Origin: Escherichia coli
GTDB lineage: Bacteria > Pseudomonadota > Gammaproteobacteria > Enterobacterales > Enterobacteriaceae
Strand: one strand, 5' to 3'
Length of the DNA: 64,000 bases
Assembly (NCBI RefSeq): GCF_029227855.1
Contig: NZ_CP074356.1
Shown: positions 29,736 through 36,372 of the stretch, piece after piece
Layout of the letters: the number at the start of each line of letters is the position of its first letter
How positions within the stretch are numbered: position 1 is the stretch's first letter
Made by a program: the position numbers and the translations under genes
Notes under the pieces: generated by a model
Database searches by the model: none
What the model saw: only the letters and a program-made list of their open reading frames with translations
What the model was told of the DNA's origin: nothing

Positions 29736-30467
29736 ATGAAAAAATGGAAAGTACGTAGCGCGTTGATAGCATTAGCCGTGCTGCTGGCCGGTTGTTCCAG
29801 TAATGCGCAGTATAATAGCAGTGCATCAGGCAATGTCGGCACCGCCTGGGGTGGGGATGTACACTCATCGGTTCAGGGCGTATCTGCTGAACGAGTCTGG
29901 CGCGATCCGGCAGAGATGATCGTTATTAGTTATTCGACTACTGTTCCTTCGGGCTACGACCGCGTTTATAGCATTCGTATTAACGAACTTGAATATGCTA
30001 TTCGCGATGGTAATTTTAATTCTCTACCTATTACGCGGGTTTATGATTCGTCAAATAATGAACCACGCTATATTGTCCATGCCAGAGTAGGAATGAATTA
30101 TCAATTATATGTCCGCAATTACAGTCGTAACACCAACTACGAGATCGTTGCTACGGTTGATGGCCTGGATGTGCTGAACGGCAAACAAGGTTCGCTGAAT
30201 AACAACGGCTATATTGTGAATGCCGGAGATTCGTTAGCGATTAAAGGATTCCGCAAAGATAAACATACCGAAGCGGCTTTTCAGTTCGCCAACGTTGCTG
30301 ATTCCTACGCAGCCAATTCGGCGCAAGGCGATGTGCGTAATACCGGGGTAATCGGCTTTGCCGCCTTTGAATTACAAGGCTCGGCGCAAAACGCGATGCC
30401 GCCGTGCTCTGGACAAGCCTTTCCGGCAGATAACAATGGCTATGCGCCGCCACCGTGTCGGAAATAG
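29736..30467 (+). CDS. Uncharacterised lipoprotein (243 aa), not recognised as a K-12 gene
   Basis: Signal peptide with lipobox MKKWKVRSALIALAVLLAG-C-SSNA; Ser/Asn/Tyr/Gly-rich mature part; good RBS (gaggga) 7 nt upstream; AT-rich codon usage; own upstream AT-rich promoter region and downstream terminator. Confidence 0.75.
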   Translation: MKKWKVRSALIALAVLLAGCSSNAQYNSSASGNVGTAWGGDVHSSVQGVSAERVWRDPAEMIVISYSTTVPSGYDRVYSIRINELEYAIRDGNFNSLPITRVYDSSNNEPRYIVHARVGMNYQLYVRNYSRNTNYEIVATVDGLDVLNGKQGSLNNNGYIVNAGDSLAIKGFRKDKHTEAAFQFANVADSYAANSAQGDVRNTGVIGFAAFELQGSAQNAMPPCSGQAFPADNNGYAPPPCRK

Positions 30468-32606: not shown

Positions 32607-34598
32607 ATGTCCTCACGTAAAGAGCTTGCCAATGCTATTCGTGCGCTGAGCATGGACGCAGTACAGAAAGCCAAATCCGGTCACCCGGGTGCCCCTATGG
32701 GTATGGCTGACATTGCCGAAGTCCTGTGGCGTGATTTCCTGAAACACAACCCGCAGAATCCGTCCTGGGCTGACCGTGACCGCTTCGTGCTGTCCAACGG
32801 CCACGGCTCCATGCTGATCTACAGCCTGCTGCACCTCACCGGTTACGATCTGCCGATGGAAGAACTGAAAAACTTCCGTCAACTGCATTCCAAAACGCCG
32901 GGCCACCCGGAAGTAGGTTATACCGCTGGTGTGGAAACCACTACTGGTCCGCTGGGTCAGGGTATTGCCAACGCAGTCGGTATGGCGATTGCAGAAAAAA
33001 CGCTGGCGGCGCAGTTTAACCGTCCGGGCCACGACATTGTCGACCACTACACCTACGCCTTCATGGGCGACGGCTGCATGATGGAAGGCATCTCTCACGA
33101 AGTTTGCTCTCTGGCGGGTACGCTGAAGTTGGGTAAACTGATTGCGTTCTACGATGACAACGGTATCTCTATCGATGGTCACGTTGAAGGCTGGTTCACC
33201 GACGACACCGCAATGCGTTTCGAAGCTTACGGCTGGCACGTTATTCGCGGCATCGACGGTCATGACGCGGCATCCATCAAACGCGCAGTAGAAGAAGCGC
33301 GCGCAGTGGCTGACAAACCGTCCCTGCTGATGTGCAAAACCATCATCGGTTTCGGTTCACCGAACAAAGCCGGTACGCACGACTCCCACGGTGCGCCGCT
33401 GGGCGACGCTGAAATCGCCCTGACCCGCGAACAGCTGGGCTGGAAATATGCACCGTTCGAAATCCCGTCTGAAATCTATGCTCAGTGGGATGCGAAAGAA
33501 GCAGGCCAGGCGAAAGAATCCGCATGGAACGAGAAATTCGCGGCTTACGCCAAAGCTTATCCGCAGGAAGCCGCTGAATTTACCCGCCGTATGAAAGGCG
33601 AAATGCCGTCTGACTTCGACGCCAAAGCGAAAGAGTTCATCGCTAAACTGCAGGCTAATCCGGCGAAAATCGCCAGCCGTAAAGCGTCTCAGAATGCTAT
33701 CGAAGCTTTCGGTCCGCTGTTGCCGGAATTCCTCGGCGGCTCTGCTGACCTGGCACCGTCTAACCTGACCCTGTGGTCTGGTTCTAAAGCAATCAACGAA
33801 GATGCTGCGGGTAACTACATCCACTACGGTGTTCGCGAGTTCGGTATGACCGCGATTGCTAACGGTATCTCCCTGCACGGTGGCTTCCTGCCGTACACCT
33901 CCACCTTCCTGATGTTCGTGGAATACGCACGTAACGCCGTACGTATGGCTGCGCTGATGAAACAGCGTCAGGTGATGGTTTACACCCACGACTCCATCGG
34001 TCTGGGCGAAGATGGCCCGACTCACCAGCCGGTTGAGCAGGTCGCTTCACTGCGCGTGACCCCGAACATGTCTACATGGCGTCCATGTGACCAGGTTGAA
34101 TCTGCAGTGGCATGGAAATACGGTGTTGAGCGTCAGGACGGCCCGACTGCGCTTATCCTCTCCCGTCAGAACCTGGCGCAGCAGGAACGTACTGAAGAGC
34201 AGCTGGCAAACATCGCGCGCGGTGGTTATGTGCTGAAAGACTGTGCCGGTCAGCCGGAACTGATCTTCATTGCCACCGGTTCTGAAGTTGAACTGGCGGT
34301 TGCTGCCTACGAAAAACTGACTGCCGAAGGCGTGAAAGCGCGCGTGGTTTCCATGCCGTCTACCGACGCATTCGACAAGCAGGATGCGGCTTACCGTGAG
34401 TCTGTACTGCCGAAAGCGGTTACTGCACGCGTTGCGGTGGAAGCTGGCATTGCTGACTACTGGTACAAGTATGTTGGCCTGAACGGTGCTATCGTCGGCA
34501 TGACCACCTTCGGTGAATCTGCTCCGGCAGAACTGCTGTTTGAAGAGTTCGGCTTCACCGTTGACAATGTTGTTGCGAAAGCCAAAGCGCTGCTGTAA
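32607..34598 (+). CDS. tktA: Transketolase 1 (663 aa)
   Basis: ORF 32577..34598; protein from [41 protein letters not shown]; start trimmed. Confidence 0.95.
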
Positions 34599-34618
34599 TC
34601 GGTAAGATGCTTTGTGAG

Positions 34619-34645
34619 AAGGGCCGCGAAAGCGGCCCTTTTTTT
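34619..34645. terminator. Rho-independent terminator after tktA, shared with the convergent SPFH gene
   Basis: gggccgc-gaaa-gcggccc followed by ttttttt; the SPFH gene stop overlaps the T-run. Confidence 0.7.
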
Positions 34646-35552
34646 ACTTAGTAGAGATAAACGGAACTGTACTGCCGGGGATCATGGTATCGGGTAGCTT
34701 ACCGTCCCAACGCTCAGCAGTGGTGAGGGCAACAAGTCCGGGATTATCCCGCAGAGCTTCACCGCGCAGGCGGATCGCTTCTGCTTCAGCCGCACTTTTT
34801 AAACGAATAGTTTCAGCCTCTGCCGCGCCTCTTACGCGAATAGTCTCAGCTTCTGCTTTGGCTGCCGCCAGTTTACTGTCTGCTTCTGCCTGGGCCTGAG
34901 TTACCGCTATTTGCGCCTGGATTTTCTCTGTTTCCAGATTTTGCTTACGTGTGGCAATGGCGACTTCTGCTTTCATTCGATCTTCAATCGATTTTTCATA
35001 AGCGTCAGAAAAATCAATATTTTCAATCTGAACACCATCAATCACCACCGGGCCAACAACGGCTTTACGCATTGCATTTTGCAGATCCTGAACCAGTTTT
35101 GTACGATCCTGTACCGCGCTAATGGCTGTATATTGCCCGAAAACGTTCTCCAGTTGGGTTGGCAGCTGGCGGACGATCAGACGCTCTTTTAAAGATTCAA
35201 TGGTGTTGTAGGTGGTATAAACCGCGCCTGCTTCTGAAGGTTTAATGTGGAAGCTGACTGATACTGTCATTTGTGCCGGTTGCTGGTCGCGGCTGTAGGC
35301 CTGTAATCCCTGATAAACCACAGCCTGATTACGCGTGGAAATTTTCTCCACGCTTTCCATAAAAGGGATCTTAAAACCCAGACCCGGCTCGGCAACTTTT
35401 ACGATTTTTCCGTAGCGCAGCAAAATGCCGCGTTCACCTTCATTAACGGTGTAATACGAGAGAAATGGCAGCACAACCACGGCAAGCACGCCAATGACGA
35501 TAGCAATAGATTTTTGTGGGCGAAATGAGGTTATTGAAACAGGTGCTTTCAT
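34644..35552 (-). CDS. SPFH/band-7 (prohibitin/HflC-like) membrane protein with C-terminal coiled-coil repeats (302 aa from MKAPV)
   Basis: ORF 34644..35588; N-terminal TM helix (IAIVIGVLAVVVLPFL), SPFH-like core, then Ala/Glu-rich repeats AEAETIRVRGA/AEAETIRLKSA/AEAEAIRLRGE. Start set at the Met preceded by the AGGAAG RBS. Not recognised as a K-12 gene at this position. Confidence 0.75.
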   Translation of the reverse strand: MKAPVSITSFRPQKSIAIVIGVLAVVVLPFLSYYTVNEGERGILLRYGKIVKVAEPGLGFKIPFMESVEKISTRNQAVVYQGLQAYSRDQQPAQMTVSVSFHIKPSEAGAVYTTYNTIESLKERLIVRQLPTQLENVFGQYTAISAVQDRTKLVQDLQNAMRKAVVGPVVIDGVQIENIDFSDAYEKSIEDRMKAEVAIATRKQNLETEKIQAQIAVTQAQAEADSKLAAAKAEAETIRVRGAAEAETIRLKSAAEAEAIRLRGEALRDNPGLVALTTAERWDGKLPDTMIPGSTVPFISTK

Positions 35553-35928
35553 ATGAATCTTCCTTGAGTAAAGTGGGGAATATGTCACATGAGGTGAGGA
35601 GAAAATAGCCGACAGGTGAGAATTCAGAATCTATAAAGGGGGATAGCGAAAAAACATTGCATTAGAAAAGTATGCTTTCGGATATTCAATAAATAAATGG
35701 CGATATGCATCACAAATACAATAACAAACAAAATATTGATTTTGTGATAAACATACCAAATACAAAGTTGACTTTAAAAATATCAATTTCATGTTGTTGT
35801 TATTTAAAGTTTTATTATTTTGACTAATGAGGTTTTTCTTCTCGCATGCCCAATTGCTTTCATTAAACCGCACGAGTATTTTATTTTTACCGCCGGACGG
35901 TACCCTAAAAATAAAATAAGGATAATTT

Positions 35929-36372
35929 ATGCGGCTTATTGATTATTTTCCAGAATCATCAATCTCAGTTATACATTCAGCAAAAGATTGGCAGGAAGCT
36001 ATCGATTTCTCGATGGCATCATTGCTGGATAAAAACTATATCAGCGAGAATTACATTCAGGCAATTAAAGATTCCACCATTAACAATGGCCCTTATTATA
36101 TTCTCGCGCCAGGTGTGGCAATGCCTCATGCGCGACCGGAATGTGGGGCGCTTAAAACCGGGATGTCTTTGACGTTACTTAAACAAGGCGTTTATTTTCC
36201 GGGGAATGACGAACCGATTAAATTACTCATCGGGCTTTCTGCTGCCGATGCCGATTCGCACATTGGCGCTATTCAGGCGTTAAGTGAATTACTGTGCGAA
36301 GAAGAAATACTCGAACAACTCTTAACAGCATCATCAGAAAAACAATTAGCGGACATTATCAGCCGCGGATAA
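35929..36372 (+). CDS. cmtB: Cryptic mannitol-type PTS enzyme IIA component
   Basis: 147-aa ORF MRLIDYFPESSISVIHSAKDWQEAIDFSMASLL... PTS EIIA(Mtl) fold with active-site His region. Confidence 0.88.
   Translation: MRLIDYFPESSISVIHSAKDWQEAIDFSMASLLDKNYISENYIQAIKDSTINNGPYYILAPGVAMPHARPECGALKTGMSLTLLKQGVYFPGNDEPIKLLIGLSAADADSHIGAIQALSELLCEEEILEQLLTASSEKQLADIISRG

Follow-up and report, generated by a model that had tools for sequence, protein, structure and literature searches.

Introduction

Work on membrane microdomains in Escherichia coli describes four SPFH (Band 7) proteins, namely HflK, HflC, QmcA and YqiK, because it has been based on strain K-12. The hflKC genes are core in E. coli. The mitochondrial prohibitins PHB1 and PHB2 form a hetero-oligomeric complex (PDB 8RRH, 9O9Z, 9UNL). 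In bacteria, the SPFH4 group, the 'prokaryotic prohibitins' of Hinderhofer et al. (2009), consists of single genes with sporadic distribution and lateral transfer; no NfeD homologue was identifiable for SPFH3, 4 and 6-12, and SPFH4 rarely co-occurs with HflK/C (PMC2636767). The table in that study holds an SPFH4 entry for E. coli E22 (ZP_00728121) and none for K-12, as well as one entry for each of several Shewanella species, including ANA-3 (YP_868093). A literature search for experimental or functional studies of the E. coli gene, of SPFH4, of bacterial prohibitins or of phage SPFH proteins returned none.

Here, a 64,000-nt stretch of E. coli DNA (contig NZ_CP074356.1; hereafter the window) was analyzed, in which a gene for an SPFH protein lies between tktA and cmtB. 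The gene as such is already known: it is annotated in RefSeq and encodes an ordinary member of a well-described superfamily.

Results

The Gene Between tktA and cmtB Encodes a Prohibitin-Type SPFH Protein

The coding sequence was located at 34644..35552 on the minus strand on the basis of its open reading frame, the RefSeq annotation, a match to Pfam Band_7 and dN/dS values of 0.016-0.059 against nine orthologues. The list of open reading frames gives 34644..35588 (minus strand), corresponding to 314 aa with a GTG start; initiation at the ATG at 35552 yields a protein of 302 aa (MKAPVSITS...) that matches the description in the first-pass annotation, and the identical RefSeq sequence WP_000646928.1, named 'prohibitin family protein', also starts at the ATG at 35552. 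Of the span 34644-35600 given in that annotation, the reading frame is real, whereas the end at 35600 takes in 48 nt of 5' flank. A ribosome-binding site, AAGGAAG, was read from the sequence at 35559..35565 (minus strand), 6 nt upstream of the ATG, and is kept in all Escherichia alleles. Further upstream (35577..35638, minus strand), two blocks conserved across genera, ATGTGACATATTCC at 35577-35590 and CTTTATAGATTCTGAAT at 35622-35638, were found in an alignment of six Escherichia alleles with those of Kluyvera and Pseudocitrobacter, and these may represent candidate promoter or regulatory sites. A consensus scan of 34500-36000 detected no sigma-70 consensus promoter, and no convincing sigma-E-type -35 element was seen by eye upstream of the conserved TCTGAA block.

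The N-terminal membrane helix, the prohibitin/HflC-like SPFH core and the Ala/Glu-rich tail described in the first-pass annotation were all recovered by Pfam, hydropathy and AlphaFold2. PF01145 Band_7 matched residues 35-210 with E = 4e-30 over positions 2-176 of the 176 in the model (34923..35450, minus strand), and this SPFH domain was modeled by AlphaFold2 as an alpha/beta domain with pLDDT >90 and supported by Foldseek. The protein has one hydrophobic segment, residues 15-33 (35454..35510, minus strand), with a maximal mean Kyte-Doolittle value of 2.49; hydropathy, the AlphaFold2 helix at 12-32 and the alignment of the membrane helix and first strands with HflC residues 6-75 all point to a single N-terminal signal anchor. 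With three K/R residues and a net charge of +3 on the N-terminal flank and a net charge of 0 on the C-terminal flank, the positive-inside rule together with the HflC anchor alignment predicts an N-in/C-out orientation. A lipoprotein, as suggested by the label of phrog_200, was ruled out since there is no Cys in the N-terminal region.

The AlphaFold2 monomer (mean pLDDT 84.7) comprises the N-terminal helix, strands and helices at 33-181 and a long helix at 183-269. Residues 183-270, which contain 22 Ala and 13 Glu in 88 residues, are modeled as one 87-residue helix, and within it lie three 11-residue repeats, AEAE(T/A)IR(V/L)(R/K)(G/S)(A/E)A (residues 233-265; 34758..34856, minus strand), whose number differs among orthologues, an E. 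albertii variant lacking 22 aa and the Kluyvera and Mixta proteins 15 aa. The C-terminal tail NPGLVALTTAERWDGKLPDTMIPGSTVPFISTK (residues 270-302; 34647..34745, minus strand) is common to phage proteins and matches phrog_38808; in a 66-sequence alignment W282, G284, L286, P287 and P292 are invariant across the family. AlphaFold2 confidence was low for residues 273-302 in this monomer model, which places a cage cap outside its scope.

Relatives by Sequence and Fold

Searching the PDB with the protein sequence returned HflC (4.5e-14), HflK (4e-11), QmcA (5e-7) and PHB1/PHB2 (about 1e-5 to 1e-4), and the same search with a family profile returned HflC (1.5e-19), HflK (4e-12), prohibitins (1.5e-11 to 1e-7), QmcA (5.5e-7) and stomatin (1.6e-6), with no match to flotillin. 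The protein is therefore closer to HflK/C and the eukaryotic prohibitins than to stomatins or flotillins by profile comparison with the PDB. In the structural comparison, HflC (7vhq_G) ranked first among the top Foldseek matches, which also comprised erlin1/2, PHB1/2 and HflK, and the probability was 1.00 for HflC, erlin, PHB, stomatin, QmcA and flotillin alike. The protein thus belongs to the prohibitin/HflC-like branch of the SPFH (Band 7) superfamily. It failed the NCBIfam cut-offs both for HflC (TIGR01932, 60.7 vs. 134.4 bits; NF008259, 53.9 vs. 427 bits) and for HflK (TIGR01933, 37.7 vs. 159.4 bits; NF008181, 35.7 vs. 660 bits), and for this reason functional transfer from HflK/C is loose. 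The branch appears to correspond to SPFH4, as judged from similarity ranking and accession-number arithmetic for Shewanella ANA-3 rather than from the HMM of the original authors: the Shewanella orthologues are 56-59% identical to the E. coli protein, and that of ANA-3 lies at 0.52 Mb, which fits the order of accession YP_868093.

The tktA-cmtB Junction in Occupied and K-12-Type Alleles

In K-12 MG1655, the gap between tktA (b2935) and cmtB (b2934) measures 313 bp with nothing annotated in it, which agrees with the absence of the gene from K-12 stated in the first-pass annotation. Of the two observations that would have contradicted that annotation, a copy of the gene at this locus in K-12 and the lack of a significant Band_7/SPFH profile match, neither was made. 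Alignments of occupied and empty alleles showed that the segment 34600..35655, comprising a hairpin, the whole SPFH gene and about 100 bp upstream, has no counterpart in K-12, where 40 bp with a different terminator are found in its place. It is followed by an AT-rich spacer (35656..35845) that is homologous to the K-12 spacer though strongly diverged, with a local alignment score of 26 as compared to a shuffle mean of 11.9 (sd 1.7) and an identity of about 50-70% depending on the alignment. Near-identity with K-12 returns abruptly at 35846, the last 82 bp before cmtB matching at 81 of 82 positions. Local alignments of both strands revealed no remnant of the SPFH coding sequence in the K-12 spacer.

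The SPFH gene is convergent with tktA, whose stop codon lies at 34596-34598, leaving a gap of 45 bp. Within this gap, folding energies support a hairpin, GGGCCGC-GAAA-GCGGCCC followed by T7 (34616..34645), with -22.7 kcal/mol on the plus and -18.1 kcal/mol on the minus strand (z about -3.7 on both), and its T-run overlaps the SPFH stop codon. The hairpin, which a consensus terminator scan did not list, also occurs in Pseudocitrobacter, and most other Escherichia alleles carry two copies of it around a BIME. It is the tktA terminator and probably acts in both directions; the convergent arrangement given in the first-pass annotation holds, and the shared terminator proposed there is plausible.

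The same order, with the SPFH gene convergent to tktA and followed by cmtB, was found in E. whittamii, Escherichia sp. MOD1-EC7003, E. albertii and E. coli SCPM-O-B-8794. In Pseudocitrobacter the gene adjoins tktA with the same hairpin, and in Kluyvera the order is epd-SPFH convergent to tktA-loiP-speB; on a shorter Klebsiella-type contig epd-SPFH was seen before the contig ends short of tktA. No integrase, tRNA, IS element or direct-repeat boundary was detected at the locus. Hence, the earlier description of the gene as inserted does not hold, given the same tktA-side arrangement and hairpin across E. albertii, E. whittamii, MOD1-EC7003, Pseudocitrobacter and Kluyvera and the lack of mobile-element hallmarks. 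A clean insertion with target duplication was likewise rejected, since the terminator of the empty allele is a different one and its spacer is only about 50-70% identical. The comparison instead indicates that the K-12 state is a derived or alternative loss allele lacking about 1.06 kb with the terminator, the gene and the promoter region, the polarity being drawn from the tktA 3' flanks of the Escherichia species, Pseudocitrobacter and Kluyvera named above. Against occupied E. coli alleles, the spacers of the empty allele and of E. albertii show about the same divergence, and therefore the two alleles may represent an old polymorphism spread by recombination rather than one simple deletion.

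The dN/dS values given above were obtained against orthologues ranging from E. coli ST131 out to Pseudocitrobacter (dS of 0.72 against E. albertii), and the gene is under strong purifying selection. Of 5,426 complete E. coli genomes, 1,818 carry it under the RefSeq name 'prohibitin family protein', ST131 among them, and the 302-codon frame is intact in these 1,818; truncated copies, with less than 80% of the gene covered, account for 12 of 1,830 matching genomes. Its absence from most E. coli, together with its removal by an IS1-mediated deletion in one strain, shows that the gene is dispensable.

Genomic Neighborhood and Mobile Relatives

The neighbors of the SPFH gene are tktA and cmtB, and it does not lie beside hflK. 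Among all ORFs of at least 30 aa in the 376-bp spacer no NfeD-like ORF was found, the largest (80 aa, 35631-35873) having no Pfam match even at E<=10. In 79 loci of the family from many genera, neither an NfeD partner nor a shared neighbor gene beyond genus-level synteny was present, the adjoining genes including murU, rsmD, potD, artJ and one for a LysR regulator. The solitary state noted in the first-pass annotation is thereby upheld on spacer ORFs, Pfam and neighbors. By contrast, its premise that SPFH genes are usually paired with NfeD, with HflK/HflC as an example, is not supported, as HflK/HflC lack an NfeD partner and none was identifiable for SPFH3, 4 and 6-12 (PMC2636767); a solitary gene is normal for the prohibitin-like branch. 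The flank away from tktA varies by genus: the gene there is cmtB in Escherichia and epd in Kluyvera and Klebsiella, Pseudocitrobacter has an mngB-like gene, and Enterobacter sp. kpr-6 has potD. Since only the tktA side is kept and tktA is convergent, there is no operon, and a function tied to the cmt operon or tktA was rejected.

A search of PADLOC-DB 2.0 matched no defence family at E<=0.01. With regard to mobile elements, the protein matched phrog_200 over residues 14-243 (E = 8.1e-63) and phrog_38808 over the C-terminal tail (E = 1.7e-19). Jumbo phages and phage Skarpretter encode full-length homologues with 46-53% identity, the L05 protein of phiP27 and of Stx2 phages, encoded beside int-xis in the prophage early region, has the same C-terminal tail, and homologues with 72-74% identity lie between traB and traV in F-type tra operons of Enterobacter.

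Discussion

The evidence makes it likely that the locus holds a functional chromosomal gene, ancestral beside tktA, for a single-pass inner-membrane protein of the prohibitin/HflC type that would act as a homo-oligomeric cage. By analogy with HflC, HflK and the prohibitins of mitochondria, the N-terminus, which is short and positively charged, would reside in the cytoplasm and the remainder would face the periplasm. As in other SPFH proteins, the long helices and the C-terminal strands could link many copies into a closed ring or cage, and as no paralogous gene supplies a partner, the assembly would be homo-oligomeric. Following this, we propose that the cage may fence off a patch of the inner membrane and either stabilize membrane proteins or gate their access to a protease such as FtsH. 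We infer the oligomeric state, the orientation and any client protease from these relatives, and the sequence gives no pointer to a new mechanism.

This proposal has to be weighed against other explanations of the same locus. According to the first-pass annotation, the gene would be a recently acquired accessory gene between tktA and cmtB coding for a scaffold that acts alone in the context of stress or defence. Its absence from K-12 and from roughly two in three complete E. coli genomes, a GC3 of 0.44, somewhat below that of tktA (0.61), and the occurrence of the family on 103 plasmid and 104 phage records would be in line with such an origin. However, the conserved tktA-side position and hairpin in several Escherichia species, Pseudocitrobacter and Kluyvera, the lack of integrase, tRNA, IS or direct-repeat boundaries, and an empty allele that is not a clean empty site but has a different terminator and a diverged spacer all speak against it; moreover, the divergence of the SPFH gene scales with that of its hosts, and neither the PADLOC result nor the core metabolic flanks fit the suggested context. 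Recent acquisition is thus largely refuted and is regarded as very improbable. Even less credible is a decaying or non-functional remnant that merely happens to be still open in the source strain. Dispensability, the few truncated copies and the IS1-mediated deletion would be compatible with decay, but the low dN/dS in all comparisons, the intact frame in all 1,818 carriers and the conservation of the ribosome-binding site and upstream blocks contradict it, and because of this selection signal the possibility is considered refuted, with practically no chance left to it.

Two further explanations accept a functional protein. One is that the main biology of the family lies in mobile elements, where a periplasmic cage would modulate phage infection, the lysis-lysogeny decision or the assembly of a conjugative pilus or T4SS, the chromosomal copy being a host version. 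The phrog_200 match and the homologues in jumbo phages and Skarpretter, L05 with its shared tail beside int-xis, and the homologues between traB and traV speak in its favor. Yet the E. coli copy lies among core genes and not in a prophage or plasmid remnant, there is neither a PADLOC match nor an experimental report that we could find, and carriage by phages and plasmids would fit a generic role in membrane homeostasis equally; this explanation is therefore judged unlikely. It is similarly doubtful that the chromosomal copy of ExPEC alters lysis-lysogeny, phage entry or pilus assembly, e.g., by acting from the periplasm as a gate for FtsH or other machines of the inner membrane; if it did, one third of E. 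coli would differ from K-12 in a trait so far studied only via HflK/C. The other explanation is an alternative HflC-like subunit that would form no cage of its own and would co-assemble with HflK or HflK/C, retuning FtsH regulation in carriers. HflC is indeed the best match by sequence and profile, especially in the membrane helix and the first half of the SPFH domain (residues 16-167), as well as by Foldseek, and as hflKC is core, both would be present in the same cell. Nevertheless, identity to HflC is only about 25%, the HflC equivalog cut-offs were failed, the C-terminal tails of the two proteins do not resemble each other in the alignment, and across very diverse genomes, phages and plasmids the family is found as one gene lacking a conserved partner, which fits self-assembly better. 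We consider co-assembly improbable, and the homo-oligomeric protein ancestral beside tktA is preferred.

The four-protein picture of E. coli microdomains is to be extended accordingly: roughly one in three complete E. coli genomes, those of ST131 and other extra-intestinal lineages among them, encodes a fifth SPFH protein, which is of the prohibitin type. The tktA-cmtB junction is in turn better described as an old presence/absence polymorphism than as an insertion hotspot.

Among the characterized systems, QmcA/YbbJ and YqiK/YqiJ share the SPFH fold and membrane anchoring with the protein described here, QmcA at E = 5e-7, but no NfeD gene adjoins the SPFH gene in the window or in the 79 related loci, and QmcA faces the cytoplasm, whereas the E. 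coli protein is predicted to face the periplasm. PHB1/PHB2 are of similar size and have the same succession of N-terminal anchor, SPFH domain, long helix and C-terminal segment, with profile matches over nearly the full length and Foldseek E values of about 1e-14; in contrast, identity is 18-20%, and the E. coli locus provides one gene instead of the two subunits of the eukaryotic hetero-oligomer. HflC and HflK (PDB 7VHP, 7VHQ, 7WI3, 9CZ1) are the closest in sequence, profile and fold and share the type II layout, in which a short N-terminus lies in the cytoplasm; the membrane helix and the initial strands are similar as well. Contrarily, the E. coli protein has no paired paralogue or hflX-hflK-hflC operon, is shorter than HflK with its long N-terminal extension, and carries a family-specific C-terminal tail (ERWDGKLP...PF). 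The proteins of phrog_200, e.g., Skarpretter gp07 ('band 7 protein'), that of Cronobacter phage GAP32 and phiP27 L05, resemble it in architecture and in the tail motif (K/R)W(D/N)GxLP; the phage copies lie in early or accessory regions, however, while the E. coli gene lies in the chromosome between core genes and has been passed down with its hosts. Finally, despite the fact that HflK/C are also present in the E. coli carriers and in Shewanella, SPFH4 (PMC2636767) agrees with the E. coli protein in being a single gene without NfeD, in its N-terminal membrane helix and predicted periplasmic orientation, in standing closest to HflK/C and the eukaryotic prohibitins and in its sporadic distribution with lateral transfer, and the two do not differ in architecture.

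Results

Within the open frame at 34644..35588 (minus strand) of the ORF list, an ATG at 35552 yields a 302-aa protein (MKAPVSITSFRPQK...); the ribosome-binding site AAGGAAG lies 6 nt 5′ of this ATG in the window sequence, and the identical start is given by RefSeq in the 100% identical record of E. coli JNEC-KY178 (WP_000646928.1, "prohibitin family protein"). The protein matches Pfam Band_7/SPFH (PF01145) over the full model (E = 4e-30). The best sequence matches among solved structures were HflC (4.5e-14), HflK (4e-11) and QmcA (5e-7), followed by prohibitins 1 and 2; a 66-member family profile left this order unchanged with stronger scores, the prohibitin match now being nearly full length. 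An identity as HflC or HflK itself was ruled out, since the protein scores below the curated NCBIfam cut-offs for both. The sole hydrophobic segment comprises residues 15-33, residues 183-270 are Ala/Glu-rich with three 11-residue repeats, and W282, G284, L286, P287 and P292 of the C-terminal tail are invariant throughout the 66-member alignment. The AlphaFold2 model (pLDDT 84.7) consists of a helix (12-32), the SPFH domain (33-181), a single helix of 87 residues and a C-terminal tail of low confidence, and Foldseek ranked HflC, erlin1/2, PHB1/2 and HflK at the top. From the charges flanking the membrane helix (three positive before, net 0 after) and the alignment of this segment with the HflC anchor, an N-in/C-out orientation with a periplasmic SPFH domain is predicted. 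A lipoprotein reading was discarded, as there is no Cys close to the N-terminus.

The gene is flanked by speA-speB-loiP-tktA on one side and by cmtBA-yggP-glpX-fumE on the other. It is convergent to tktA, and the 45 bp between them hold one GC-rich hairpin followed by T7 that folds well on both strands. In K-12 MG1655, tktA and cmtB are spaced 313 bp apart with no annotation inside. The descriptive statements of the first-pass annotation were thus all correct, including the ORF, the SPFH family assignment, the hydrophobic segment, the Ala/Glu stretch, the convergence with tktA and the lack of an SPFH gene between tktA and cmtB in K-12.

The compact 45-bp form (34599-34643) is found in the window and in Pseudocitrobacter. 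In most occupied alleles, i.e., junctions carrying the SPFH gene (compared in loci L003, L005, L010, L084-L087 and L004), the tkt and SPFH stop codons are about 170 bases farther apart, and the added sequence is a BIME (two inverted REP elements) with a copy of the terminator hairpin GGGCCGCGAAAGCGGCCC on either side; in Escherichia sp. MOD1-EC7003, the hairpin-plus-BIME unit occurs three times in tandem (569 bp). Upstream of the SPFH gene, two blocks at 35577-35590 and 35622-35638 (minus strand), ATGTGACATATTCC and CTTTATAGATTCTGAAT, are conserved among Escherichia, Kluyvera and Pseudocitrobacter in a spacer that has otherwise diverged, and they are candidate promoter or regulator sites. A sigma-70 consensus scan of this upstream region found nothing.

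Another gene that many E. coli lack is located about 5 kb from the SPFH gene, between speA and speB (29736-30467, plus strand). Its 243-aa product is annotated as "hypothetical" or "membrane protein" and belongs to no NCBIfam family; of the 5,426 complete E. coli genomes, 3,550 carry the gene and the remainder are about 875 bp shorter at the site. On a Kluyvera contig (L089 8125-8853), a 242-aa gene without Pfam match adjoins loiP.

Discussion

The SPFH gene occupies the tktA-cmtB locus in 1,818 of 5,426 complete E. coli genomes (33.5%), including ST131, ST648, clone D i2, O2:K1:H7 APEC, NCTC86 and an O145 strain. With the exception of one tkt-only match, every sampled genome with partial coverage, an O157:H7 strain among them, carries one uniform empty allele with a span of 884-885 bp; its 313-bp spacer is also that of K-12. 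The first-pass annotation had regarded the gene as inserted, which is not supported: the convergent tktA-SPFH pair recurs across genera, the locus has no integrase, IS, tRNA or repeat boundary, and the empty allele does not represent a clean excision site. The same position is occupied in E. whittamii, Escherichia sp. MOD1-EC7003, E. albertii and E. coli SCPM-O-B-8794. In Pseudocitrobacter, the gene adjoins tktA with an identical hairpin; Kluyvera intermedia has the order fbaA-pgk-epd, SPFH and convergent tktA-loiP-speB, and a Klebsiella-type contig reads fbaA-pgk-epd-SPFH and ends before any tktA. It is the block on the opposite side that varies (cmtBA-yggP in Escherichia). Judged by this synteny, the position beside tktA appears to be ancestral and the K-12-type genomes to carry an old loss allele.

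Right after the tktA stop, the empty allele has 40 unrelated bases with a different terminator hairpin, and the next ~190 bp are homologous to window 35656-35845 at an identity of just 50-70%. Within the spacer upstream of cmtB (35656-35928), identity between occupied and K-12-type alleles then rises abruptly at 35846, to 81/82 bases in the final stretch before cmtB. In its distance from occupied E. coli alleles, the empty-allele spacer roughly equals that of E. albertii, and a short motif of the K-12 spacer, ATAACTCA.TGTTA, recurs in E. albertii and not in occupied E. coli alleles. The identity jump and the shared motif suggest an old recombination breakpoint 84 bp upstream of cmtB; the sharp switch at 35846 is also suggestive of a loss allele that was possibly spread by recombination. 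As regards the window itself, region 34300-36200 (1,901 bases) is matched at ≥99% identity in only two records, one being JNEC-KY178 (100%), and the next occupied genome listed has 96.8%. Taken by itself, the SPFH gene reaches ≥99% identity in 71 genomes, and the tkt-cmtB haplotype of the window is therefore rare among complete genomes.

The dN/dS of 0.016-0.059 against nine orthologues, ranging from E. coli ST131 to Pseudocitrobacter, and the intact 302-codon frame in 1,818 complete E. coli genomes indicate that the gene is functional and strongly constrained. It is dispensable: it is absent from most E. coli and affected by an IS1 deletion in E. coli FDAARGOS_1260 (L088 2501-4529), where IS1A adjoins a 225-bp 3′ remnant and the deletion has taken the 5′ part of the gene, cmtBA and the 5′ end of yggP.

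The lack of an NfeD partner was rightly recognized in the first-pass annotation, and the significance attached to this solitary state was misplaced. When ORFs within 3.5 kb of the family gene were clustered for 79 loci (Enterobacteriaceae, Shewanella, Pseudomonas, Cellvibrio, Yersinia, Brucella and Rhizobium), no common neighbor family emerged beyond genus-level synteny, and co-directional adjacent genes in related loci are unrelated housekeeping genes (murU, rsmD, potD, a LysR regulator and artJ). Prokaryotic SPFH proteins were divided into 12 subfamilies, the prohibitin-like one being SPFH4, and no NfeD homologue was identifiable for SPFH3, 4 and 6-12; in the supplementary table, E. coli E22 and several Shewanella species each have an SPFH4 entry and K-12 has none (Hinderhofer et al., 2009; PMC2636767). 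The Shewanella orthologues found here are 56-59% identical. The gene is likely a member of SPFH4 and, given the subfamily data and the absence of shared neighbors, fits a catalogued subfamily whose members normally stand alone. A defense context, raised earlier along with stress, proved wrong: the PADLOC search with the SPFH protein gave no match and, with the flanking genes being those from speA to tktA and from cmtBA to fumE, nothing supports a defense island at this locus.

Family members occur on 103 plasmid records and in 104 phage records. At least 10 Enterobacter plasmids have a copy; in F-type transfer operons, copies of 72-74% identity are placed between traB and traV, as in the E. 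hormaechei IncFII/IncR plasmid pMB9539_2 (L094 5905-6789; order traB, hypothetical, prohibitin, hypothetical, traV), and a Pseudomonas megaplasmid has a copy (58%) near sppA. The copies of GAP32-like jumbo phages (H86-H95; 50-53% identical), gp07 of phage Skarpretter (L093 2932-3783; 46%) and L05 of phage phiP27 (L092 1771-2598) all match phrog_200. L05 of phiP27 and Stx2 phages, labeled "putative serine protease", adjoins int-xis; its BLAST likeness to the SPFH protein is confined to the C-terminal Ala/Glu repeats and the WxGxLP / (K/R)W(D/N)GxLP tail, and its phrog_200 match is full length. No experimental work on the phage or plasmid members was found in the literature, and their occurrence on mobile elements is the only lead to something less ordinary.

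An annotation of the gene and a description of its subfamily exist already, the function being inferred only; in many clinically important E. coli it adds a fifth SPFH protein, which studies based on K-12 miss. The default expectation for this branch would be a role in gating or stabilizing proteins of the inner membrane, FtsH being the obvious candidate. We propose that copies of the protein may assemble, on the periplasmic side of the inner membrane, into a homo-oligomeric ring or cage, in which a palisade of N-terminal helices around a membrane patch would serve as the anchor, the Ala/Glu helices would build the wall and the cap would be closed by the conserved C-terminal strands. The number of 11-residue repeats varies between orthologues, which would alter the height of the wall and leave the design unbroken. 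This proposal is based on analogy with the solved HflK/C, prohibitin, erlin, stomatin and QmcA assemblies, which were at the top of the fold search.
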